Assembly (NCBI GenBank): GCA_003554845.1
Contig: PWHK01000017.1
Location: 11,242 to 75,241 of the forward strand
Direction: 5' to 3'
DNA from: Candidatus Aenigmatarchaeota archaeon
Lineage (GTDB): Archaea > Aenigmatarchaeota > Aenigmatarchaeia > PWEA01
DNA length: 64,000 bases
Shown here: piece after piece, positions 4,812 through 56,092 of the stretch
Layout of the letters: the number at the start of each line of letters is the position of its first letter
How positions within the stretch are numbered: the first letter of the stretch is position 1
Notes under the pieces: model-generated
Databases searched by the model: none
What the model was told of the DNA's origin: nothing
The model's input: the letters and a program-made list of their open reading frames with translations, nothing else
Program-made: the position numbers and the translations under genes

Positions 4812-5019
4812 ATCACAAAAATGTTAGTGCGAGCAGTTTAAAAACTTTCCTGATGGATTCAGGCTTATAAGTTTTCAGAAGAAATCTATATGTGGGCAAT
4901 GAGCGCACCGCCCCATTCCGACTCCTGAGGCGTGAGCTTCCGGGTGGATGAGGATAAGGGTAGCTAGTGAGCCCCCATTTTTCCAATAAAGTTTTAAACT
5001 ATAGGGACAAATTGAGTAA

Positions 5020-5262
5020 GTGATTAAAATGGTAGATTTTGAAACAGTTAAGGGAACCGAGGTCAAGTTTGGAAAAAACGACTTTATACAGGTCGCAAGA
5101 AAAAAGGCCATCTCAGAGGATGGAGAAAACTTCTTTCTTTCGCTTTCAAGAGGTTTTTTCGGAGACGACGACGAAAGAATATGGAAGAAGAACTTTTCAA
5201 TTCCAGACGACCAGGAGGTTCTCGATAAGATCATAGAGGCTCTGGAAGAACTCAGAGAATAG
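5020..5262 (+). CDS. Hypothetical small protein (probable start ATG at 5029)
   Basis: 80-aa ORF with no recognisable motif; sits immediately upstream of a tRNA. Confidence 0.3.
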   Translation: MIKMVDFETVKGTEVKFGKNDFIQVARKKAISEDGENFFLSLSRGFFGDDDERIWKKNFSIPDDQEVLDKIIEALEELRE

Positions 5263-5268
5263 ACAGTT

Positions 5269-5432
5269 GGGGCCATAGTGTAGTCAGGCCCAGCACAGCA
5301 TCTGTTGGTGCGCTGAAGGTGGACTCCAGACTATAGGAGTATTGACCGTTTTTCGGAATGATAGAAAAAAGGATGTACGGCTTATGCCGAGGGTGACATC
5401 CACAACCCCCGGTTCAAATCCGGGTGGCCCCA
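5269..5432 (+). tRNA. tRNA-Trp (CCA) with a canonical 37/38 intron (~68 nt) and a probable second ~21-nt insertion between the D-arm and anticodon stem
   Basis: Acceptor GGGGCCA/TGGCCCC 7-bp perfect; T-arm CCCGG-TTCAAAT-CCGGG; anticodon stem GTGGA/TCCAC flanking loop CTCCAG[intron]A; D-arm GTGT-AGTCAGGCCCA-GCAC; a T-rich tract follows the 3' end. Confidence 0.6.
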
Positions 5433-5436
5433 CTTT

Positions 5437-7089
5437 TTATTCTTCCAGGCTATCCATTTCTTTTTTCAGCCTTTCCACGAGAGTCTTCCTCATATTTTCC
5501 ACTGCCTTTTCGCCGTTGTGTATAGCCTCTTCGACGTAGTCCATGAGTTGCTCTGCCGCCAGTAGATCGTGGACCATTACATAGTCGGCCCCTTGTTTCA
5601 GCATTCTGTTTGCCTCTTTGAAGCTGTTTGAACGGACAACCTTTCTTGCATCTGTTTCCAGTGCCAGTATCTTTTCGGATATATGTCTCTGTGGTGGTGT
5701 GGATATTATCATATCTGCCTGTTTGAAGTTTGCTGTTTCCCAGCTCTCGTCGTCCATAGCACTTCCGAAGACCCTGTTTTTTAGATCCTCGGTCTCCTCG
5801 AAGACCTTGGGGTTTACATCTATAACCACAAATTCCCTGTCACATTCCCTGAGATAGTCGCCTATCTTTTCGCCTTGTACATCGTAGCCCACTAGTATTA
5901 TATGGTTATTCAGCTCTGTGGTTATCCTTGTGTTGTATCTTCTAAGGCCTTCTGGTGTGTCGAAGGGTAGGTTTTTCGAGAGCCAGTTCTGTATTCTTCC
6001 GGAGTATCTGTCTGTGATGGCGGTAGTTATCATGGTTACAGTAGTGGCGAGTATTATCCCCTGGAAGATCGGTGCGGCTATTGCACTTACCAGGTAGGCC
6101 TGTATCGCTATTATGAGAACGAACTCGCTGACCTGGTCCAGGGTAAGTGCACATCTGTATGCGGTTCGCTTACTGTATCCATAGTGCATCAGCGAGAGAG
6201 CAGTTAGGAGGGGTTTTACGAAAACAGCGACAACTATTATGAAAAGTGCTATCGCCAGAGTTGCAACGCCTGGGAATGTAACAAGGGCTCCCAGGGAGAA
6301 AAAGAAAACTGCTGCAAAGAAGTCCTTTAAAGACTCCATGCTTTCAACTAGTTCGATGTTGTACGGGAACCTTGAGAAGGCAAGGCCTGCAAAGAAAGCA
6401 CCTACAACTATTGATATTCCTGTGAACTGTGAGATAGCTATCATACCGCCCAGGAGCGAGATTCCAGAAAGAAGCATAAGTTCCTCCGAATGATCGGACA
6501 GTTCGAAAAGCCATGGGAACAGGAATCTTCTGAAAGCCAGGGAAAGGATAAACATCCCTCCACCCACAGCCAGTGCGTATCCTATACCTACGTTGAAGAG
6601 GACAGGACTTAACAACAAAATAAGAACTATCGCCAGTATATCATGTATAACATCTGTTGCCTCGGCCAGTCTTGCGTACAGGAGCTCTACTGTAGCGTAT
6701 TTTTCTGAGAGCTCTGTTCCTACCAGCGACGAACTGAAAACCAGGGCTGCACTTATGTATATGGAGTTGAGTGTTCCGAAGCCCGAAAGGTATAGGGCAC
6801 CGAAGAATCCCAGTCCCAGTCCTGTTATCTGTGCGCCTGTGCTGAGAAGGCTTCCGCCTATACCATGCTTCAGTTTACCGGGTTCCAGTTTTGCACTGAA
6901 TATAAACACGACAAAGGCTATACCCCATTGCATTAGTTCCAGCAGCCCTTCCTCTGTCAGGAACATCCCGCCTATTAGGCCTGCTATTATGTATGCCGGG
7001 ATCGTGAGCTTGAAGATCTTATGGAATACGAACAGCAGTACGGCCGAAAGCACGAAAACGGTTGCAAAGGTGTATATAACTCCTATCAT
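5437..7089 (-). CDS. CPA2-family (Kef-type) cation/proton antiporter with C-terminal RCK/TrkA-N domain
   Basis: Polytopic membrane N-terminal region; C-terminal HIILVGYDVQGEKIGDYL...VVIDVN Rossmann-type RCK domain. Confidence 0.7.
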   Translation of the reverse strand: MIGVIYTFATVFVLSAVLLFVFHKIFKLTIPAYIIAGLIGGMFLTEEGLLELMQWGIAFVVFIFSAKLEPGKLKHGIGGSLLSTGAQITGLGLGFFGALYLSGFGTLNSIYISAALVFSSSLVGTELSEKYATVELLYARLAEATDVIHDILAIVLILLLSPVLFNVGIGYALAVGGGMFILSLAFRRFLFPWLFELSDHSEELMLLSGISLLGGMIAISQFTGISIVVGAFFAGLAFSRFPYNIELVESMESLKDFFAAVFFFSLGALVTFPGVATLAIALFIIVVAVFVKPLLTALSLMHYGYSKRTAYRCALTLDQVSEFVLIIAIQAYLVSAIAAPIFQGIILATTVTMITTAITDRYSGRIQNWLSKNLPFDTPEGLRRYNTRITTELNNHIILVGYDVQGEKIGDYLRECDREFVVIDVNPKVFEETEDLKNRVFGSAMDDESWETANFKQADMIISTPPQRHISEKILALETDARKVVRSNSFKEANRMLKQGADYVMVHDLLAAEQLMDYVEEAIHNGEKAVENMRKTLVERLKKEMDSLEE

Positions 7090-8783
7090 AGTCTCGCCTC
7101 CCAGTCTATTATCTGTTTGTCACCTTCTACAGCTTTGTCGAAGAGATCGGGGTTCTCGAGGAATGACTCGATGTATTCATTCATCTTTTCTGCCGATAAC
7201 ATCCTTTTTATTATTACAAAGTCTGCGCCTAGATCGTAAAGCTCTGCCGCATCTTCCCTGTCCCTGGCCCGCAGGAATACCACGGCACCTTCTTTTCTAT
7301 CGCCGAGTATCCTCCTGTTAACAGCATTATCCATGGCCATGCTGACTATCATGTCTGCCCTTTTCAGGCCTATGGATCTCCTCATCTCCTCGTGTTTAAG
7401 GTCACCGAAGACGAACTCGGCACCGGACTTCCTGAGCATTTCCACGTACTTTGGATCTTTGTCTATGACGACGATATCCCCATACTTTTCCTTTAAAACA
7501 GGAATCAATCGCCGTGTTATCTCGTTGTAACCTACGACAATAGCATGGTTGTCCAGTGTTTTTATGTCAAAATCGCCCTTTTCCTCCGACTCCATGAACT
7601 CAAAGAGATGTTTTACGTGGTCGTAGATCCAGTGGTTGTACTTTATTATGTATGCCGACAGACCCATGGTCATGATTGCCATGAGGCTTAAGTAACCCAT
7701 GATTTCATTTCCAATCAATCCTCTGGTGACCGCAAGGGCCCCGACTACCAGAGAGAACTCACTGACCTGGACCATGTTTATACTTCCAAGGAACGATGTC
7801 TCGAGACTGAACTTTTCCCTATCTATGAGATAAAACATTATTAGGAAGTTACCTACCATAAGGAGGGCAGAAGCTACTACGGCTTCCTTCCAGTAGACCG
7901 TTAGATATTCAGGCGCAAGACCGAGTCCTATCGTGGCGAAGAAAACCATCATAAAGAAGTCGGTTATGGGCTTTACCTGTTGCTTCAGTTCGTCGCTATA
8001 CGGACTCTGTGCCAGTCCAAGTCCTGCTATAAAAGCGCCGACTTCCACAGGTACGTCCAGCGCAAGGGAGACCGCTATGAACAAAAAGGCCCATGCTGCA
8101 CCATTTACGAAGAGAAGGTGCTTGTTGTTGCCTACCTCCTTTACGATCTTTGGAACCATCCATTTGGACACGGCGTAGGAAAATACACCGAGAACAGCCA
8201 TTACTCCCATTACTTGGAAGAAGTTGATAGCTATGGGAACAGGGTTTGTGAGATCAGGCGCGCTGAAAAGTGTGAGATAAACAACGAGTATTATGTCCTG
8301 TACTATAAGCACACCTACGTCTATCTTACCGGGCAGCGAGTTTATCTCGTCCTTTTCGTCCAGTAATTTAACAATAACGGGCGTCGCACCAAAAACCGTG
8401 CATAGTGCCATGACGATGACTTCTATCATCGCAAATCCAAGGAAGTAGTATATAACGAAGGCGAGGGAAGTCTGGAGCACAGTCTGCCAGAAAGAGATCT
8501 TCAGGATGGGCTTCAGTATATTACGTATTGCATCGAACTTGAGCTGCAGTCCTAGAAGAAATAGTAGGAATGCAAGTCCGAGTTCTGACATGAGTTCAAG
8601 AAGGGCAGTCTCTTGTACGACATCGAGAAAAACAGGACCCAGGATAAGCCCGGTTATAAGGTAGGCTATTAGATTGGGCTGGTAGGTCTTATGCGCTATA
8701 TAACCCATGACAGTCGCGACCGCGATCAACAGTACGAAGTCCCAGGTTATGAAAAGACCTTCTGTTATGGCTATATCGAACAT
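7086..8783 (-). CDS. CPA2-family (Kef-type) cation/proton antiporter with C-terminal RCK/TrkA-N domain (tandem paralog)
   Basis: Same architecture as the downstream paralog; HAIVVGYNEITRRLIPVLKEKYGDIVVIDKD; 4-nt overlap with the next gene. Confidence 0.7.
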   Translation of the reverse strand: MFDIAITEGLFITWDFVLLIAVATVMGYIAHKTYQPNLIAYLITGLILGPVFLDVVQETALLELMSELGLAFLLFLLGLQLKFDAIRNILKPILKISFWQTVLQTSLAFVIYYFLGFAMIEVIVMALCTVFGATPVIVKLLDEKDEINSLPGKIDVGVLIVQDIILVVYLTLFSAPDLTNPVPIAINFFQVMGVMAVLGVFSYAVSKWMVPKIVKEVGNNKHLLFVNGAAWAFLFIAVSLALDVPVEVGAFIAGLGLAQSPYSDELKQQVKPITDFFMMVFFATIGLGLAPEYLTVYWKEAVVASALLMVGNFLIMFYLIDREKFSLETSFLGSINMVQVSEFSLVVGALAVTRGLIGNEIMGYLSLMAIMTMGLSAYIIKYNHWIYDHVKHLFEFMESEEKGDFDIKTLDNHAIVVGYNEITRRLIPVLKEKYGDIVVIDKDPKYVEMLRKSGAEFVFGDLKHEEMRRSIGLKRADMIVSMAMDNAVNRRILGDRKEGAVVFLRARDREDAAELYDLGADFVIIKRMLSAEKMNEYIESFLENPDLFDKAVEGDKQIIDWEARL

Positions 8784-9472: not shown

Positions 9473-9590
9473 GCGGCCGTGGTCTAACGGCTAGGACTCG
9501 AGCCTTCCATGGGCACGTCCGGTAAATTATTTTCGGGCGCGTAGTCCGGAGCCAGCTCGCTGTCCGGGTTCAAATCCCGGCGGCCGCACC
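9473..9590 (+). tRNA. tRNA-Gly (UCC) with 44-nt intron at canonical 37/38 position (intron ~9510-9553)
   Basis: Acceptor GCGGCCG/CGGCCGC; D-arm GTCT-AACGGCTA-GGAC; anticodon stem CGAGC/GCTCG around loop CTTCCA[intron]A; T-arm CCGGG-TTCAAAT-CCCGG; T-rich 3' flank. Confidence 0.7.
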
Positions 9591-10757: not shown

Positions 10758-10913
10758 ATGCCTTCAAGAAAGACAAAGGGAAAGAAAAGAAAGCTCATAA
10801 AGAGAGGAAACATTTCAGATGCTCCTATATGGGCGTCCATAAGAAAGTACGGAATGAAGAGAAGCAGGACGAGACGGATAAGAGTCAACAAAGGTAAGCA
10901 CTGGAGAGAGTGA
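10758..10913 (+). CDS. rpl39e: 50S ribosomal protein L39e (51 aa; absent from ORF track)
   Basis: Manual translation MPSRKTKGKKRKLIKRGNISDAPIWASIRKYGMKRSRTRRIRVNKGKHWRE; conserved L39e-L31e-eIF6 gene order. Confidence 0.85.
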   Translation: MPSRKTKGKKRKLIKRGNISDAPIWASIRKYGMKRSRTRRIRVNKGKHWRE

Positions 10914-11551
10914 TCCATATGGAAGACAACGTTTTCAGAATTCCTCTCAGGGTGAAAAAGGTTGAGAGAAGGAATCGGGCAGCAAGGGCTGTACGTGAGA
11001 TAAAGAAGTTCGTAAGAAAACAGACAGAAAAAGATATCAAGATAGACCAGGAGATAAATGATATAATATGGAAAAGAGGTGCACAGAAACCACCTTCATC
11101 TATAAGAGTAAGGCTTGTTGATTCGAATAGCCATGTGCTGGTACAGTCCCCCGACAGAGAGCTTCCCTCGGAAAAGAAGTTCGAGTGCGAAGACTGCGGG
11201 AAGACATTTTCAACGGAGCAGGGACTCAAAGTGCATGTATCGAGGGCCCACAGGGAAGAAGAGGAACAGGAAGAGGAAGAAAAGGAAGAGGAGAACTACG
11301 TATGCGAGGAATGCGACAGAGAGTTCGATACAAAAAGAGGACTTTCTATACATCAGTCACAGTCACATGACGAGGACGATGACGACGACGACAGAGAGGC
11401 ATATGAAGAGGCACTGTCCGGAAGCATATCCGATGCAAAGGAAGCTATAGATAATATGGACGATCCAGACTTTGATCTTTTACTTGAAATAGAGGAAGAG
11501 AACAAGGACAGAAAGGGAATGAAGAAATACCTTGAGGATCAGATCAGTTGA
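10910..11551 (+). CDS. rpl31e: 50S ribosomal protein L31e fused to two C2H2 zinc fingers, a poly-acidic tract and a conserved ~45-aa C-terminal module (likely start ATG 10919)
   Basis: N-terminal ~90 aa RIPLRVKKVERRNRAARAVREIKKFVRK...IDQEINDIIWKRGAQKPPSSIRVRL is L31e; then FECEDCGKTFSTEQGLKVHVSRAH and YVCEECDREFDTKRGLSIHQSQSH; DDDDDD; C-terminal [38 protein letters not shown]. Confidence 0.8.
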   Translation: MIHMEDNVFRIPLRVKKVERRNRAARAVREIKKFVRKQTEKDIKIDQEINDIIWKRGAQKPPSSIRVRLVDSNSHVLVQSPDRELPSEKKFECEDCGKTFSTEQGLKVHVSRAHREEEEQEEEEKEEENYVCEECDREFDTKRGLSIHQSQSHDEDDDDDDREAYEEALSGSISDAKEAIDNMDDPDFDLLLEIEEENKDRKGMKKYLEDQIS

Positions 11552-14542: not shown

Positions 14543-15577
14543 ATGAACAGACAAAAAAGAAAGAGGCTTGTGACGAGGCTTACAGACGAAGTAGTTACAG
14601 AAGAGGAACTGGATGGGATACTCGAGAAAGATAAGCCTGTGGCGTACATAGGCTATGCACCTACAGGTCTTCCCCATATAGGCCATTTTGCTACACTCAG
14701 AAAGGCAGCCGACTTCGTAAAGGCAGGCTTTGAGTTTAAGGTTCTTATTGCAGATGTTCACGCAGAGCTCGATGTAGAAAAGACACCTCAGGACCTCATA
14801 GATGCAAGGTCCGAGATATACGAAGAGTCCGTGAAGGAGATGATAAAGCAGAGCGGTGTAGGACTCGATAGTGTCAAAATAGTCAGAGGAAGCAGCTACC
14901 AGTACGACAAGCCGTACCAGAAGGGATACATCCATCTTATGGAAAATACAACTGTGGCCAGAGCCGAACGGGCATCGAGTGAGGTTGTAAGGCACGAGGA
15001 TGGAATGAAGGCTTCGGGAATACTGTATCCGTTTATGCAGATAATGGACTGCGTGGCCTTGGATGTCGACGTTGCATACGCAGGAACCGATCAGAGAAGA
15101 ATATACATGCTAGGCAGAGAGACGTTGCCCAGTATAGGAGAAGATAAGGTAACAACAGTACTCTATCCTCTACTCGGGGGCTTACAGGGAGGTAAGATGA
15201 GTGCATCTGATCCAAAATCGAAGATAGGAGTACTTGACTCCGACGAGGAGATAGAAGAAAAGGTAATGGATGCCTACTGTCCACAGGGAAAGGTCGATGG
15301 AAACAGCCTTCTTGGCTATGTAAAGTACCTAATGTTCCCGATTATAGAAGACAGAGGAACCTCGTTTGATGTAGAGAGACCCGAAAAGTACGGAGGAGAT
15401 GTTTCATACAGCAAATACAGTGACCTGGAAGATGATTTTCTGTCAGGTGATCTCCACCCACAGGACCTCAAGAAGGGCGCATGCGAGGTTATGAAGGATA
15501 TAATAGGTCCTATAAGAGAAAGACTGTTTCAAAAGAAGGATGTTTTGAAAAGAGCATACCCCGAAGAGTTAGACTAG
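14543..15577 (+). CDS. tyrS: Tyrosyl-tRNA synthetase
   Basis: Class I HIGH-like GLPHIGH and KMSAS (KMSKS) motifs; archaeal TyrRS length. Confidence 0.85.
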   Translation: MNRQKRKRLVTRLTDEVVTEEELDGILEKDKPVAYIGYAPTGLPHIGHFATLRKAADFVKAGFEFKVLIADVHAELDVEKTPQDLIDARSEIYEESVKEMIKQSGVGLDSVKIVRGSSYQYDKPYQKGYIHLMENTTVARAERASSEVVRHEDGMKASGILYPFMQIMDCVALDVDVAYAGTDQRRIYMLGRETLPSIGEDKVTTVLYPLLGGLQGGKMSASDPKSKIGVLDSDEEIEEKVMDAYCPQGKVDGNSLLGYVKYLMFPIIEDRGTSFDVERPEKYGGDVSYSKYSDLEDDFLSGDLHPQDLKKGACEVMKDIIGPIRERLFQKKDVLKRAYPEELD

Positions 15578-16192: not shown

Positions 16193-17341
16193 CTATATTT
16201 CTACTTTATTGTTCCACATCTCTCTAGCAAGCTTGCCTTTGTACATCATCTTCTTTTTAGCCTTCGTGGATTTCTCCTTTCTTTTTTGGTGCTCACCTAG
16301 AAAGCTGTTCAACTTCTCTATAAGTATCTCCTTTACCTCTCCCGTTAACATATCTCCATTGTTGTACTTCCTTCCTATTTCCTTTATTCTTTGGTCGTCG
16401 TCCAGGAAAAGATTACGCAACCATTGATAGGCTACGTCTACAGATAGATCGGCTCCCTTTTCCCTGTGTTCCTTCTTTGTTATCTGTCCTCCGGAGTAGG
16501 CCCTTTCCATCACCTTTTTCCTGACGTCTTCCGGGCCGTCGTTCAGCATTATTGCATCCCTGGGCTTCGAAGACGACATCTTCCCTTCTGGACCTGTTAA
16601 CGCCGGAACAAGTTTATTGTGTATCTGTGCAGCCTTTTTTCTACCGATCTTCGGTGCTATATCCCTCTGTATTCTCCAGTATGGATCCTGGTCTATTCCA
16701 GCGGGTATCAGACACCTTCCTTCCTCGAAAAATGTAGGCAGAATTTGGAGCGCAGGATACCAGTTGAGGCCTATGTTGGTTGAGCTGCCGAAACCAAAGA
16801 CAGCAGATACCACAGAGTTGTTTATATTTTTGGCCACCTTGGTTGCAGCCTTGTACATGTTTCCTATGTATTCCGTATTTTTGAATATGAAGGTCTTGTC
16901 GGGATCAAATCCAACTGCAGCCACGTCTTTGAGGTTATCCTGGGCGAATTTCTCCACATCTTCATATTTGTTTCCCCTGGTCCAGTATTTTTCGTCGTCT
17001 GGGAACTGGATGTATACATTTACATCGAAGTTGTCCTGGAACCATTTTGTCATCTTAAAGGATATTATATGGCCTATATGCATAGGCCCGGATGGTCCTA
17101 CTCCTGTGTATAGGAAGAAACCATCCCCTTCTTCGTAGTCTTCCATGACCTTGTCCATGTCGCGGTGCGAAAACACGAAGTCTCTGTCTATGTAGAAGTT
17201 TTTTGAGCCGGCGTTTCCATGTATGCGTTCTTTGAGGTTTTCTGTGAGCCTTTCGGTTCCAAACTTTTCTATAAGTTTTCTGTAGTCCACGTTGCCCTCA
17301 ACGTCCCAGGGCGTTACTTCAAAACTGTTTTTATCTACCAT
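16193..17341 (-). CDS. trpS: Tryptophanyl-tRNA synthetase
   Basis: Class I motifs (GPSGPMHIGH HIGH-like, KMSSSK KMSKS-like); 382 aa, archaeal/eukaryal-type TrpRS. Confidence 0.85.
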   Translation of the reverse strand: MVDKNSFEVTPWDVEGNVDYRKLIEKFGTERLTENLKERIHGNAGSKNFYIDRDFVFSHRDMDKVMEDYEEGDGFFLYTGVGPSGPMHIGHIISFKMTKWFQDNFDVNVYIQFPDDEKYWTRGNKYEDVEKFAQDNLKDVAAVGFDPDKTFIFKNTEYIGNMYKAATKVAKNINNSVVSAVFGFGSSTNIGLNWYPALQILPTFFEEGRCLIPAGIDQDPYWRIQRDIAPKIGRKKAAQIHNKLVPALTGPEGKMSSSKPRDAIMLNDGPEDVRKKVMERAYSGGQITKKEHREKGADLSVDVAYQWLRNLFLDDDQRIKEIGRKYNNGDMLTGEVKEILIEKLNSFLGEHQKRKEKSTKAKKKMMYKGKLAREMWNNKVEI

Positions 17342-42196: not shown

Positions 42197-42604
42197 TTAC
42201 TCTATAGATTTTAAAGTTTTTATCTCGTCTTCTATCTCTTTGACAAGATCTTCTGCATCTCCGACTTCTGTTATGGCCAATGAAGCTGTCTGTACTGTTA
42301 GCCCCGATGCCCTTCCAAGCTCCTCCTTTTCACCTACAAATGCATAAGGAATAGACTTCTCTTCACAGATAGCGGGTAGATGCATTACTACTTCCGGAGG
42401 CTCCACATCTTCTGCTATAACTACCAAGTCTGCATTGCCCCTTTCGACTGCCTTTGTTACTTCGTTTGTTCCGATGTTTATCTTTCCTGTAGCCCTTGCT
42501 GTTTCAACTGCTTCTAGTATTGTATCCTCAAGTTTTTCAGGTACGTTGAACTTTACATAATCTGCCATCAAACCACCTCTCTGATTTTCATCAGTGATTT
42601 TCAT
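42197..42604 (-). CDS. rpl7ae: 50S ribosomal protein L7Ae (K-turn binding; also C/D, H/ACA and RNase P component)
   Basis: [60 protein letters not shown]. Confidence 0.9.
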
Positions 42605-52647: not shown

Positions 52648-53910
52648 TTATTTCTTTTTGAACGGGTAAACAACAGGATTTTTTATCTGTATGTTGTCTG
52701 TTCCCTGTTTGCATTTGTCGTCTGGGTCACACACACCAAAGGATTTGTAGTAGAGATCATTGTCGCACGACGGGGATACAAGCTCTCTATTTTGTCTTTT
52801 GAACCATTTCAGCTGTGTGTTTATGTAGTTTTCACCTAGAGGAGGATTGTTTTTGTTGTTCCACTCTTCTAATCTCTCCTCTACACTTTCCCAGTCCCAG
52901 GCCATTCTTCTCAGGAAGGTTATGAGTATAAATACACTCCTCTTTCTTCCATCATCCAGTCCTTCTAGTATGTGTTTTATACAAGGAGGAAACCTTTTCT
53001 CTGGTATAGGATCCTCGGGTTTTATCTCCTTTGTACTGCCCTCGTCTTCTTCTTCCTTCTTCTTTCTCTTACTCATCCAGTTGATTGAATCGACCATAAG
53101 TTCCTTTGCACAGCCCTTCTTGATATTTCCTATGAACTTTCTACCAAGTTCGACGTTTTCAGGCTTTGCATCATCCATTTTGAAACCATCTATTTCGTCT
53201 TTTTCCAGAGGATAGGATACGTGCCAGGTTCCGTCGTGGAGAGAGTAAGGAAGCCTGAATAGATGTCTTTTACCCCAGTACTTTTCCACATCCACAAAGG
53301 CAAAGGGTGTCATTCTGTCTATATGTGAGTCCAGTTCATCGGAAAGCTTGTGGAAGGAACCCTTGAGATCTATAAAGTCCTGGAGAAGATCCCCCTTTAT
53401 TTTTTTTCTTATGAAGGATGCTATAGACTGTGGTATTGCAGGGAACTGTTTGCTTGTCTTCTCAAAGTCGACCTTTTTAGGAAAGGCCTTCCAAGGAACA
53501 ACAACATGGAAACCTCTTCTCCCTGAAAACTTCATGCCATAGCCATCTATTCCATAGTCCTCGAGCAAGTATATTATTTTTTTGAGTGTCATCTTGGCTG
53601 CTTCCAAGCCCATGGCAGAATCTATATCAAGGATAAGATCCCAGCCCTTCCTGAGACGGTCCATGTCCTCTTTTCTCATTTTGGTGTCGAGCTTCATAGG
53701 ATTTTTCCATCTTTCGACAGAACCATGGAATGCGACACAACCCTTCTTTACCAGTCCGAGTAGATCGTTACTGTACTGGAGAACATTGGGCCTTGAAGTA
53801 TATCCGCCACCGGAAAGAGTTCCACTTATTTCTCTGTCCTTTGATATATTCAGTATAGAATCAATTACCTCTTCTCTGCTGTAGTAGTCTATAATCTCCT
53901 TTCTGTTCAT
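52648..53910 (-). CDS. priSL: DNA primase, single-chain fusion of PriS catalytic domain and PriL C-terminal Fe-S domain
   Basis: PriS motifs LILDIDSA, FSGRRGFHVVVP, FRLPYSLHDGT in residues ~90-235; PriL-CTD motifs FPPCIKHILEGLDDGRKRSVFILITFLRRM and Cys cluster SPSCDNDLYYKSFGVCDPDDKC at the C-terminus. Confidence 0.8.
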   Translation of the reverse strand: MNRKEIIDYYSREEVIDSILNISKDREISGTLSGGGYTSRPNVLQYSNDLLGLVKKGCVAFHGSVERWKNPMKLDTKMRKEDMDRLRKGWDLILDIDSAMGLEAAKMTLKKIIYLLEDYGIDGYGMKFSGRRGFHVVVPWKAFPKKVDFEKTSKQFPAIPQSIASFIRKKIKGDLLQDFIDLKGSFHKLSDELDSHIDRMTPFAFVDVEKYWGKRHLFRLPYSLHDGTWHVSYPLEKDEIDGFKMDDAKPENVELGRKFIGNIKKGCAKELMVDSINWMSKRKKKEEEDEGSTKEIKPEDPIPEKRFPPCIKHILEGLDDGRKRSVFILITFLRRMAWDWESVEERLEEWNNKNNPPLGENYINTQLKWFKRQNRELVSPSCDNDLYYKSFGVCDPDDKCKQGTDNIQIKNPVVYPFKKK

Positions 53911-54727: not shown

Positions 54728-56092
54728 TTATTTATATAAGTCTTTTGTCCGGAGTCCTAGGTCCTCGGAGTTTTCCCTGAATACCTTTTCAAGGCCTCTT
54801 CCCCTTTCCTTTACTCTGTACCTAACCCTTACAACCGGGACATCTACATCAACAAGCCCTGAAAGATCCATGGGGGTTCCGGCAATTACAGCATCACACC
54901 TACAACTGTTTATAGTCTTTTCCAGGTCTTCTATCTGTTCTTTGCTGTAGCCCATCGCCGGTACAACCCTTTTTAGGTTGTTGTATCTTTCGAAAACATC
55001 CTTTATAGATCCGAATGCGTCATTCCTCGGATCGACTATCTTTGACGCGTTGTACTTCCGCGCCGCTATTAAACCGGCCCCATATGAAGCTCCTCCATGC
55101 GTAAGTGTCGGTCCGTCTTCCACAACCAGAACATCCTTATTCTCTATCATTTCGGGGTTTTCGACATCTACAGTTGAGTCTGCGTGGATGATTTCTGCAT
55201 CCGGATTGACCTTCTTTGTATTTTCAACTATCCTTTCTATTTCCTCGACCTCTGCGCTGTTTTCCTTGTTTACCACGACGTAGTCTGCTGACCTCAGGTT
55301 CGCCTCACCCGGGTGGAAGCTTAATTCATGTCCGGGCCTGAGTGCGTCTGCCACAACTATGTGGACGTCGGGTTTGAAAAATGGGAGTTCGTTGTTTCCA
55401 CCCTCCCATATTATGATGTCGCATTCTTCCTCGACCTCTTCAAGTATGCTTTTGTAGTCAACTCCTGCATACACAACGTTTCCATTTTCGATATGTTGCT
55501 CGTACTCTTCCCTCTCTTCTACAGTAGTGTTTTCCCTGTCAAGATCTTCCATGGTTTCAAACCTCTGTACCTTCTGCTCATGCAGATCACCATATGGCAT
55601 AGGCTCCCTTACTACAACTACGTCCTTCCCATGGTCCTTTAGTATCTTTACAATCCTTCTCGAAACCTGTGACTTTCCACATCCGGTTCTTACAGCATCT
55701 ACGGCAACGATGGGTTTGTTGGATTCCAGCATCATCTCCCGAGGGCCTATAAATCTGAAGCCTGCGCCTTCTGAAAGAACCCTTGAAGCAGTATGCATCA
55801 CGTCTTCGTGGGATATATCCGAGTACGAGAAAACCACCTGGTCCACATTCTTACTTTCTATTATACTCTCTAGGTCTTCCTCGGATACTATGGGAATACC
55901 ATCGGGGTACAGTTCACCGGCGAGTTCCGGGGGATATACTCTCTCATCTTCCCTTCCTATTTCACCTATATTCTGTGTGGATGTGTGTGTAAATGCAACC
56001 ACTCTGTAGTTTTCGTTTCCTCGGAAGAACGTATTGAAATCGTGGAAATCACGGCCTGCGGCACCCATTATAACTACGTTTTTTCTCTGCAT
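54728..56092 (-). CDS. COG2403-family P-loop protein, cyclic 2,3-diphosphoglycerate synthetase-like
   Basis: 454 aa; N-terminal Rossmann-like VVIMGAAGRDFHDFN; central P-loop AVRTGCGKSQVS; length and architecture fit the cPGS family but identity not verifiable here. Confidence 0.4.
   Translation of the reverse strand: MQRKNVVIMGAAGRDFHDFNTFFRGNENYRVVAFTHTSTQNIGEIGREDERVYPPELAGELYPDGIPIVSEEDLESIIESKNVDQVVFSYSDISHEDVMHTASRVLSEGAGFRFIGPREMMLESNKPIVAVDAVRTGCGKSQVSRRIVKILKDHGKDVVVVREPMPYGDLHEQKVQRFETMEDLDRENTTVEEREEYEQHIENGNVVYAGVDYKSILEEVEEECDIIIWEGGNNELPFFKPDVHIVVADALRPGHELSFHPGEANLRSADYVVVNKENSAEVEEIERIVENTKKVNPDAEIIHADSTVDVENPEMIENKDVLVVEDGPTLTHGGASYGAGLIAARKYNASKIVDPRNDAFGSIKDVFERYNNLKRVVPAMGYSKEQIEDLEKTINSCRCDAVIAGTPMDLSGLVDVDVPVVRVRYRVKERGRGLEKVFRENSEDLGLRTKDLYK

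Follow-up and report, generated by a model that had tools for sequence, protein, structure and literature searches.

The stretch of DNA analyzed here (the window; 64,000 nt of contig PWHK01000017.1) carries a tRNA-Trp(CCA) gene of a halo(alkali)philic archaeon of the Aenigmatarchaeota (DPANN), and two features of this gene are described. First, comparison of orthologous sequences makes it very probable that the gene contains two introns with bulge-helix-bulge (BHB) motifs, a short intron 1 between tRNA nucleotides 25 and 26 and a longer intron 2 between nucleotides 37 and 38. A two-intron tRNA-Trp of this kind is a fresh example of a known but uncommon class, and it is expected in such a lineage. 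Second, judged by its conserved sequence pattern, intron 2 appears to be a variant of the tRNA-Trp guide intron, which has kept one kink-turn (K-turn) and the geometry toward nucleotides 34 and 39 and from which the terminal C/D boxes are gone. The literature search gave no description of this particular gene; tRNA databases were outside that search. The gene is organized as follows.

5269-5432, plus strand: complete tRNA-Trp(CCA) gene with three exons and two predicted introns; the terminal CCA is not encoded, and a T-run (CTTTTTATT) follows
5269-5296, plus strand: exon 1, tRNA nucleotides 1-25, placed by the ARAGORN cloverleaf of the spliced sequence and the BHB register
5297-5317, plus strand: predicted intron 1, 21 nt (AGCATCTGTTGGTGCGCTGAA), at the non-canonical site 25/26, with a BHB core, present or absent among orthologues
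5318-5329, plus strand: exon 2, tRNA nucleotides 26-37, with G26, the 5' strand of the anticodon stem (GUGGA) and the loop nucleotides CUCCAG
5330-5397, plus strand: predicted intron 2, 68 nt, at the canonical site 37/38; its motif (BHB2) has the anticodon stem (5 bp) as outer helix
5398-5432, plus strand: exon 3, tRNA nucleotides 38-73, with A38, UCCAC, the variable loop AACC, the T arm, the acceptor 3' strand and the discriminator

Two predicted introns in one tRNA-Trp gene

The original prediction for this locus, a tRNA-Trp(CCA) at 5269-5432 with canonical arms, agrees with the sequence. The acceptor stem is GGGGCCA/TGGCCCC with the discriminator A5432, the D arm is GTGT-AGTCAGGCCCA-GCAC, the anticodon arm is GTGGA-CTCCAG[A]-TCCAC with the anticodon CCA at 5326-5328, and the T arm is CCCGG-TTCAAAT-CCGGG; exon 1 holds the acceptor 5' strand, U8 and A9, and the whole D arm (GUGU/GCAC) with its 11-nt loop. 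Two interruptions lie between these parts. One of 68 nt follows nucleotide 37 (5330-5397), and a shorter one of 21 nt separates the D stem from the anticodon stem, where positions 5298-5318 read GCATCTGTTGGTGCGCTGAAG; both had been predicted with these lengths. When both stretches were deleted in silico, the remaining 75-nt sequence was called tRNA-Trp(CCA) by ARAGORN, with a canonical cloverleaf (acceptor stem 7 bp, D stem 4 bp, anticodon stem 5 bp, T stem 5 bp), U33 and the T loop TTCAAAT. When the 21 nt alone were deleted, ARAGORN reported a tRNA-Trp with a 68-nt intron in the anticodon loop, in agreement with the expected intron at 37/38.

The gene was compared with its counterparts in seven related metagenome-assembled genomes (MAGs), so that the window and these loci (L001-L007) make a set of eight orthologues. 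The tRNA gene adjoins a Kef-type Na+/H+ exchanger gene (5437-7089, minus strand; Pfam), orthologues of which are 67-83% identical in the seven MAGs, and in all seven the tRNA-Trp gene lies directly 3' of the Kef-type gene. The records of these MAGs are labelled Candidatus Aenigmatarchaeota or Nanobdellati (DPANN). The element 'Sed' in several isolate names was read as denoting sediment metagenomes; the MAGs presumably come from soda lakes, an origin reportedly given in the source study and absent from the record titles. The proteome of the window is acidic and its G+C content is about 45%. A metagenome scan gave only matches identical to L001, L002, L003 and L005 and did not widen the diversity, and an exact-protein look-up of the neighbouring Kef gene returned no record. 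Two side observations concern these loci. The Kef-type gene used as synteny anchor is the first of tandem Na+/H+ exchanger plus TrkA_N genes (5437-7089 and 7086-8783, minus strand) with an open reading frame (ORF) overlap of 4 nt, and the tRNA-Trp gene of L007 (7664-7832, minus strand) encodes CCA after the discriminator, unlike the others.

With default settings, ARAGORN reported no tRNA on the window and the intact tRNA-Trp gene was invisible to it. The Rfam tRNA model left the intact gene unmatched at the gathering threshold and also at E<=10 on 401 bp, and it recognized none of the insert-bearing genes of the orthologue set. With option -i, ARAGORN labelled the intact gene 'Asn(GTT)' through a forced mismatched stem, and this output, taken literally, would mean a tRNA-Asn(GTT) (Ala or Gly in orthologues) that carries a single long intron and a long extra arm. 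We give this reading practically no credence. The identity shifts between Asn, Ala and Gly from one orthologue to the next, mismatched anticodon stems or an 8-nt loop are required, and the reading is gone in the insert-less orthologues, which ARAGORN or Rfam call ordinary tRNA-Trp or tRNA: the syntenic L001 and L004 genes are called Trp(cca) by ARAGORN and give full-length matches above threshold to Rfam RF00005 (49.4 and 47.4 bits, respectively). It is already contradicted by this comparison of orthologous sequences. When we checked the window for further hidden tRNAs and stand-alone C/D small RNAs (sRNAs), none were found. Weak minus-strand Rfam matches in the region at E<=10 (ctRNA_pGA1, Plastid-ycf2) were at chance level and were dismissed. 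A minus-strand match to the C/D sRNA family sR52 (5417-5476; E=0.06, with 19.8 bits where the gathering score is 50) was also judged to be due to chance; it overlaps the tRNA 3' end and the Kef gene end in antisense and lacks a proper box C.

The view that the 21-nt insert is an intron, and thus the original prediction of a second, non-canonical intron, is supported by a BHB motif, by clean presence or absence in the orthologues and by the restored cloverleaf. An insert of 21-22 nt occurs at the same place in L005, L003 and L002 as in the window, and it is exactly absent in L006, L004, L001 and L007. In the insert-less genes a single nucleotide stands between the 3' strand of the D stem and the anticodon stem; this nucleotide 26 is G in three of the four and A in L006. 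These genes share the D arm of the insert-bearing ones, and L001 and L004 are scored as full-length tRNAs by Rfam, which speaks against the unusual D arm that had been offered as the other explanation of the extra nucleotides. No copies of intron 1 were found elsewhere in the window or the loci. A search for a BHB motif, as had been proposed, found a core at the insert (CAGC/GCUG with the bulges ACA and AAG). The parts of this motif (BHB1) are as follows.

5291-5294, plus strand: 5' strand of the BHB1 central helix, CAGC (tRNA nucleotides 20b-23), pairing with GCUG at 5312-5315 with no mismatches
5295-5297, plus strand: 5' bulge ACA, with a predicted cut after C5296
5298-5311, plus strand: inner helix GCAUC/GGUGC, 5 bp, closed by the tetraloop UGUU
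5312-5318, plus strand: 3' strand of the central helix, GCUG, then the 3' bulge AAG, with a predicted cut after A5317 that makes G5318 nucleotide 26

All four insert-bearing genes, that of the window among them, retain the core of BHB1, in which a 4-bp helix separates two 3-nt bulges that lie on opposite strands. In L003, one-sided changes in the inner helix keep the pairing (U.G to C-G, and C-G to U.G), and the first central pair changes from C-G to U.G in L003 and L002. RNAalifold, run on the three distinct insert-bearing sequences, independently recovered the central helix, the ACA bulge and the inner helix. A permissive BHB scan of the region gave hundreds of meaningless matches and was uninformative; therefore, a placement-restricted shuffle test was used. 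There are just two placements at which excision of 21 nt restores the cloverleaf. Of 200,000 shuffles of the insert, 0.035% gave a strict BHB, with a perfect central helix and 5 bp or more in the inner helix, at one or the other of them (p~3.5e-4).

The second of these placements would put intron 1 at 5298-5318, between nucleotides 26 and 27, with A26, as in the original prediction; it would need the endonuclease to cut behind the third nucleotide of the bulge, or else a relaxed motif. This register also gives a 75-nt cloverleaf, the intron-less L006 gene has A26, and RNAalifold pairs G5318 with C5290 and leaves a 2-nt bulge, because of which the geometry of the 3' bulge is not fixed by the data. 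We nevertheless consider it improbable. In this register the four nucleotides 5' of each bulge are unpaired (mismatches at 4/4), and G26 is found in three of the four intron-less orthologues. In addition, the BHB register applied here takes each strand as a 5' helix, a 4-nt central helix, a 3-nt bulge and a 3' helix, and sets the cut behind the second nucleotide of the bulge. It was calibrated on the canonical introns of tRNA-Gly(UCC) and tRNA-Trp in the window and yields both 37/38 junctions exactly. For the insert, the same rule gives 5297-5317, 25/26 and G26, which moves the intron one nucleotide 5' of where it had first been placed.

Several observations weigh against the two-intron reading with the 25/26 register. 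The outer helix of BHB1 consists of one pair (C5290-G5319) in the strict register, and the energy model prefers the RNAalifold version with the G5318-C5290 pair, which has an outer helix of 3 bp and a 3' bulge of 2 nt; with either, BHB1 is a relaxed (BHBh'-like) form. On the window sequence alone, the energy model favours a rival helix of 12 bp, and in the ensemble the pairs of BHB1 have P~0.05. The covariation is limited to one-sided changes because there are just three distinct versions of intron 1. On the side of intron 2, the central helix of BHB2 is formed by CUCC (32-35) and GGUG (5392-5395), with the bulges AGA and ACA, and it contains a U33.U mismatch in seven of the eight orthologues; in L007 it is perfect (GGAG). 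The helix h' of BHB2 (5331-5332 with 5390-5391) has just 2 bp. No gene for the splicing endonuclease EndA was found among the ~50 window ORFs scanned.

If the 21 nt were retained, the locus would be a pseudogene or would encode a tRNA in which an additional hairpin separates the D arm from the anticodon arm; the low ensemble probability of BHB1 in naked RNA could be taken as an argument for this. We hold this to be very unlikely. The gene is the sole tRNA-Trp gene at a syntenic site where all relatives examined have tRNA-Trp, its exons are intact and identical to those of L005, the BHB is kept in three distinct insert versions through pairing-preserving changes, and a chance BHB at the right place is unlikely by the shuffle test (3.5e-4). 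To our knowledge, no class of tRNA has an arm at 25/26. A further weak point of BHB1 is that its central helix uses nucleotides 20b-23 of the D arm, so that the D stem must open for the motif to form; the predicted difference between BHB1 and the closed D stem is only about 1.4 kcal/mol in favour of the BHB.

Excision at 25/26 fits what has been reported for other archaea. The site 25/26 is a documented non-canonical position of archaeal tRNA introns, including genes that have a canonical intron too (PMC4090602), and multi-intron tRNAs have been reported in DPANN lineages whose endonucleases have an extra loop (PMC5829648). The present gene resembles the archaeal multi-intron tRNA genes of Thermoproteales, Nanoarchaeota and other DPANN (Sugahara et al. 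2007/2008, reviewed in PMC4090602; PMC5829648) in its combination of a short 25/26 intron with a canonical 37/38 intron, in a BHB core that has a 4-bp helix between 3-nt bulges and needs an alternative fold of the D arm, and in the patchy presence among close relatives. It differs from them in its halo(alkali)philic Aenigmatarchaeota host, in being a tRNA-Trp gene and in its outer helix of 1 bp in the strict register. A second comparison is available within the window, where the tRNA-Gly(UCC) gene (9473-9590, plus strand) has a 44-nt intron (9510-9553) with an hBHBh' motif; its central helix (CUUC/GGAG) is perfect, and it has 5 bp in the outer and 4 bp in the inner helix. The cut register and the type of endonuclease substrate are alike in the two genes, whereas the tRNA-Gly motif is strict and each tRNA-Trp motif is relaxed in one element. 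The tRNA-Gly intron is present in the L002, L004 and L006 orthologues, and the L007 copy is intron-less.

Guide-like architecture of the long intron

Intron 2 contains a series of conserved elements, which in the window are the following.

5336-5345, plus strand: candidate antisense element GGAGUA, then a box D'-like UUGA (5342-5345); GGAGNN-UUGA is invariant in all eight orthologues
5346-5364, plus strand: predicted K-turn elements, i.e. the hairpin CCG-UUUUU-CGG, a 3-nt bulge AAU and a box C'-like GAUAG, assigned from sequence and covariation
5365-5377, plus strand: spacer of 13 nt, the same length in all eight orthologues
5378-5389, plus strand: hairpin P2, CGGC-UUAU-GCCG, at the place expected for box D, with the conserved pattern YGGC-loop-GCYR

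In all eight orthologues the order of elements is the same: the 5' splice site, an A and 5 nt, GGAGNN, UUGA, a covarying hairpin, RAU-GAYAN, the 13-nt spacer, P2, an A or AG, GGUG (GGAG in L007) and the 3' bulge. The stretch before GGAGNN is longer in two of them, with 6 nt in L002 and 29 nt including a hairpin in L007. UUGA, the hairpin and AAUGAUAG follow the box C'/D' K-turn pattern with a compensated fourth pair, and would make a predicted L7Ae site. The pairs predicted with UUGA in all eight are G.A, A.G, U.U and A-U, the last replacing the consensus G-C, and the C-stem hairpin of 3-8 bp covaries (CCG/CGG, CCGG../..CCGG, CCAGG/CCUGG, UGC/GCA). The original prediction had seen only degenerate C/D-like elements in this intron. 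The terminal box C (RUGAUGA) and box D (CUGA) are absent from intron 2 in all eight orthologues. The prediction falls short for AATGATAG, which is the box C'-type strand of the conserved, compensated K-turn; UUGA and RAU-GAUAG together form the K-turn pattern, and therefore the element quoted there as AATGATAGA would be one strand of an intact motif. The examination of the long intron for C/D box and K-turn features, which had also been proposed, thus gave one C'/D'-type K-turn, assigned from sequence and covariation, and no terminal box C/D.

Two stretches of the intron are complementary to the exons. The GGAG of the first pairs with C32-C35 and sets G5337 opposite C34 at the fifth nucleotide upstream of UUGA, and this position is kept in all eight orthologues. 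The second is GGAUGU (5371-5376) in the spacer, which forms helix P1 with the last two intron nucleotides and nucleotides 38-41 (38-41/42 across orthologues, where six to seven spacer nucleotides take part); P1 shows double-sided covariation at four pairs (GGAUGU/ACAUCC, CAGGUUU/AAACCUG, CGAGUUU/AAACUCG). Here A5373, opposite nucleotide 39, is the fifth nucleotide upstream of P2, and the partner of nucleotide 39 is so placed in all eight. P2 itself shows a C-G to U-A compensation in L006 and L004, and its 3' strand is contiguous with h' and the central helix of BHB2; it is plausible from this model that P2 extends the inner helix of the splicing motif by stacking.

These distances can be compared with known guide RNAs, in which the target pairs with the fifth nucleotide upstream of box D or D' (the N+5 rule) and the guide is 10-12 nt long (PMC7994747). 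For a second guide that ends at box D, a spacer of about 12 nt would be expected, against the 13 nt here. The euryarchaeal tRNA-Trp intron mediates methylation of two sites, namely positions 34 and 39 (PMC4090602, PMC11408192). On the strength of the conserved sequence geometry, we lean, by a modest degree, toward intron 2 being a methylation guide. Several findings weigh against this function. No terminal box C or box D is present, and the second antisense element therefore has no recognizable box to measure from. The duplex around C34 is short, with 5 bp in the window and 6-9 bp elsewhere, and no genes for Nop5 or fibrillarin were found among the ~50 window ORFs scanned. Rfam C/D families gave no match on the plus strand at E<=10. 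As candidates for terminal C/D boxes or a second K-turn, GGAUGUA, GGUGA, the P2 flanks, the exon AGA, the circularized junction and the CUGA of intron 1 were tried by hand, and none was conserved or geometrically consistent across the eight orthologues.

The missing terminal boxes, the short C34 duplex and the lack of Nop5 and fibrillarin genes among the scanned ORFs would also suit another role, in which the K-turn and the antisense stretches are a structural or chaperone module that binds L7Ae, holds the anticodon stem open, and times or controls splicing or stabilizes a circular intron. In keeping with it, the guide fold strongly out-competes BHB2, and the second antisense element could act on the precursor only, because two of its partners are intron nucleotides. 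A chaperone of this kind would leave unaccounted for the placement of C34 at N+5 from UUGA and of nucleotide 39 five nucleotides upstream of P2 in all eight orthologues, the spacer length fixed at 13 nt, and the coincidence of 34 and 39 with the methylated sites of the euryarchaeal tRNA-Trp intron system (PMC4090602, PMC11408192). We regard it as a serious but clearly less probable alternative to the methylation guide. Within the guide reading, a more specific and speculative proposal is that intron 2 is a natural single-K-turn ('half-mer') cis-acting guide, in which the terminal C/D K-turn has been replaced by the plain hairpin P2 with the ruler distance kept, P2 doubles as the splicing inner helix, and one C'/D'-type ribonucleoprotein would direct Cm34 and possibly Nm39 and then pass the precursor on to the endonuclease. 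We consider this rather doubtful; if true, archaea would have a minimal form of box C/D architecture that has not been described in them.

The closest known system is the cis-acting box C/D intron of euryarchaeal pre-tRNA-Trp from Haloferax volcanii and Pyrococcus (Clouet d'Orval 2001, Bortolin 2003 and Singh 2004, cited in PMC4090602, PMC11408192 and PMC7994747). As described in these three citing papers, it shares with intron 2 the tRNA and the 37/38 position, antisense elements that oppose C34 and nucleotide 39, the N+5 placement of C34 from a D'-type box, and a K-turn. The present gene is unlike it in having a single C'/D'-type K-turn (UUGA / GAUAG) with a compensating A-U, in the absence of the terminal box C (RUGAUGA) and box D (CUGA) with a hairpin instead 13 nt after the C'-type box, and in the presence of a second intron.

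Competing folds and a proposed pathway

In the predicted ensembles of the naked precursors, all eight orthologues give P>=0.93 for the pair between C34 and the guide and P<0.01 for the anticodon stem, the outer helix of BHB2. The pair between nucleotide 39 and the spacer ranges from P 0.14 to 0.98 over the eight precursors. For the window, the ensemble gives P=0.985 for C34:G5337 and P=0.90 for P1, and the guide conformer is predicted to be about 10 kcal/mol more stable than the splice-competent BHB2 conformer. The guide fold and the BHB2 fold are mutually exclusive; therefore, modification would be expected first and refolding for splicing next. Bortolin et al. (2003) reportedly describe the same mutual exclusion in the cis-acting Pyrococcus pre-tRNA-Trp.

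A pathway can be proposed from these folds. The sequence anatomy, the geometry of the BHB motifs, the distribution of intron 1, the covariation and the predicted energies are results of the analysis; we infer the cleavage sites, the order of events, the binding of L7Ae, Nop5 and fibrillarin, and the methylation. The precursor would be 164 nt long, and the archaeal splicing endonuclease would remove the two introns at their BHB motifs. The precursor would fold first into the guide conformer, in which L7Ae may bind the K-turn and place GGAGUA so that C34 is at N+5 for 2'-O-methylation, and the antisense stretch of the spacer would unzip the anticodon stem through nucleotides 38-41 and the last two intron nucleotides. 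A Nop5-fibrillarin unit may then methylate C34, and perhaps also nucleotide 39, although box D support is absent there. Refolding would form BHB2 and BHB1, with CAGC (20b-23) pairing with the intron GCUG instead of closing the D stem. The endonuclease would cut four times, after the second nucleotide of each 3-nt bulge, so that C25 could be joined to G26, and a ligase would join the three exons. A gene for the K-turn-binding protein is present in the window and is given here as context for this trans-acting factor.

42197-42604, minus strand: L7Ae gene (Pfam PF01248, E=2e-30)

Neighbourhood, possible exchange between relatives and significance

The history of the tRNA-Trp gene appears to differ from that of its neighbour. 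In the neighbour-joining tree of the Kef protein, the window groups with L002 and L005 groups with L003, whereas the tRNA-Trp genes group as window with L005 and L002 with L003. The window and L005 share a tract of about 600 bp (4838-5435) with 86-96% identity, against a background of 64-80%; a small ORF and the entire tRNA-Trp gene, its two introns included, lie within the tract, and the identity falls right at the tRNA 3' end. Because the tRNA similarity conflicts with the Kef tree and the identity drops at the tRNA 3' end, the sequences suggest recombination, with the tRNA-Trp gene at the edge of the exchanged tract. The small ORF upstream (5020-5262, plus strand; 80 aa) has no Pfam match, and its stop codon (5260-5262) lies 6 nt before the tRNA start at 5269, so that a tRNA promoter, if any, would be inside it; the last ~80 nt of this ORF (5180-5262) have about 95% DNA identity to L005.

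Other genes of the window were noted in passing. Two class I W/Y aminoacyl-tRNA synthetase genes (14543-15577, plus strand, and 16193-17341, minus strand), probably for TyrRS and TrpRS, lie ~9-12 kb from the tRNA-Trp gene. The gene at 10910-11551 (plus strand) encodes a fusion of ribosomal protein L31e with C2H2 zinc fingers and an acidic tail. A single ORF of 420 aa (52648-53910, minus strand) matches both the small and large primase families and looks like a fused PriS-PriL, and an ORF of 454 aa (54728-56092, minus strand) has no Pfam match at E<=1e-4.

None of these findings overturns current understanding, and they are of moderate interest, mainly for annotation and for competing RNA folds. 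For annotation, the standard tools miss the gene or misname it as Asn, Ala or Gly, and MAGs of this lineage would therefore seem to be without tRNA-Trp; such an apparent lack would lower completeness estimates and may lead to false genetic-code inferences. For evolution, the close relatives that have or lack the 25/26 intron amount to a clean natural experiment, in a DPANN lineage, on how introns are gained and lost. If intron 2 is a guide, its 34/39 geometry without terminal boxes, found outside the Euryarchaeota, would bear on the question of what a minimal cis-guide box C/D RNA is. In addition, two BHB motifs and a guide fold would compete for the same nucleotides of the precursor, which may serve as a compact system for the study of competing RNA folds.

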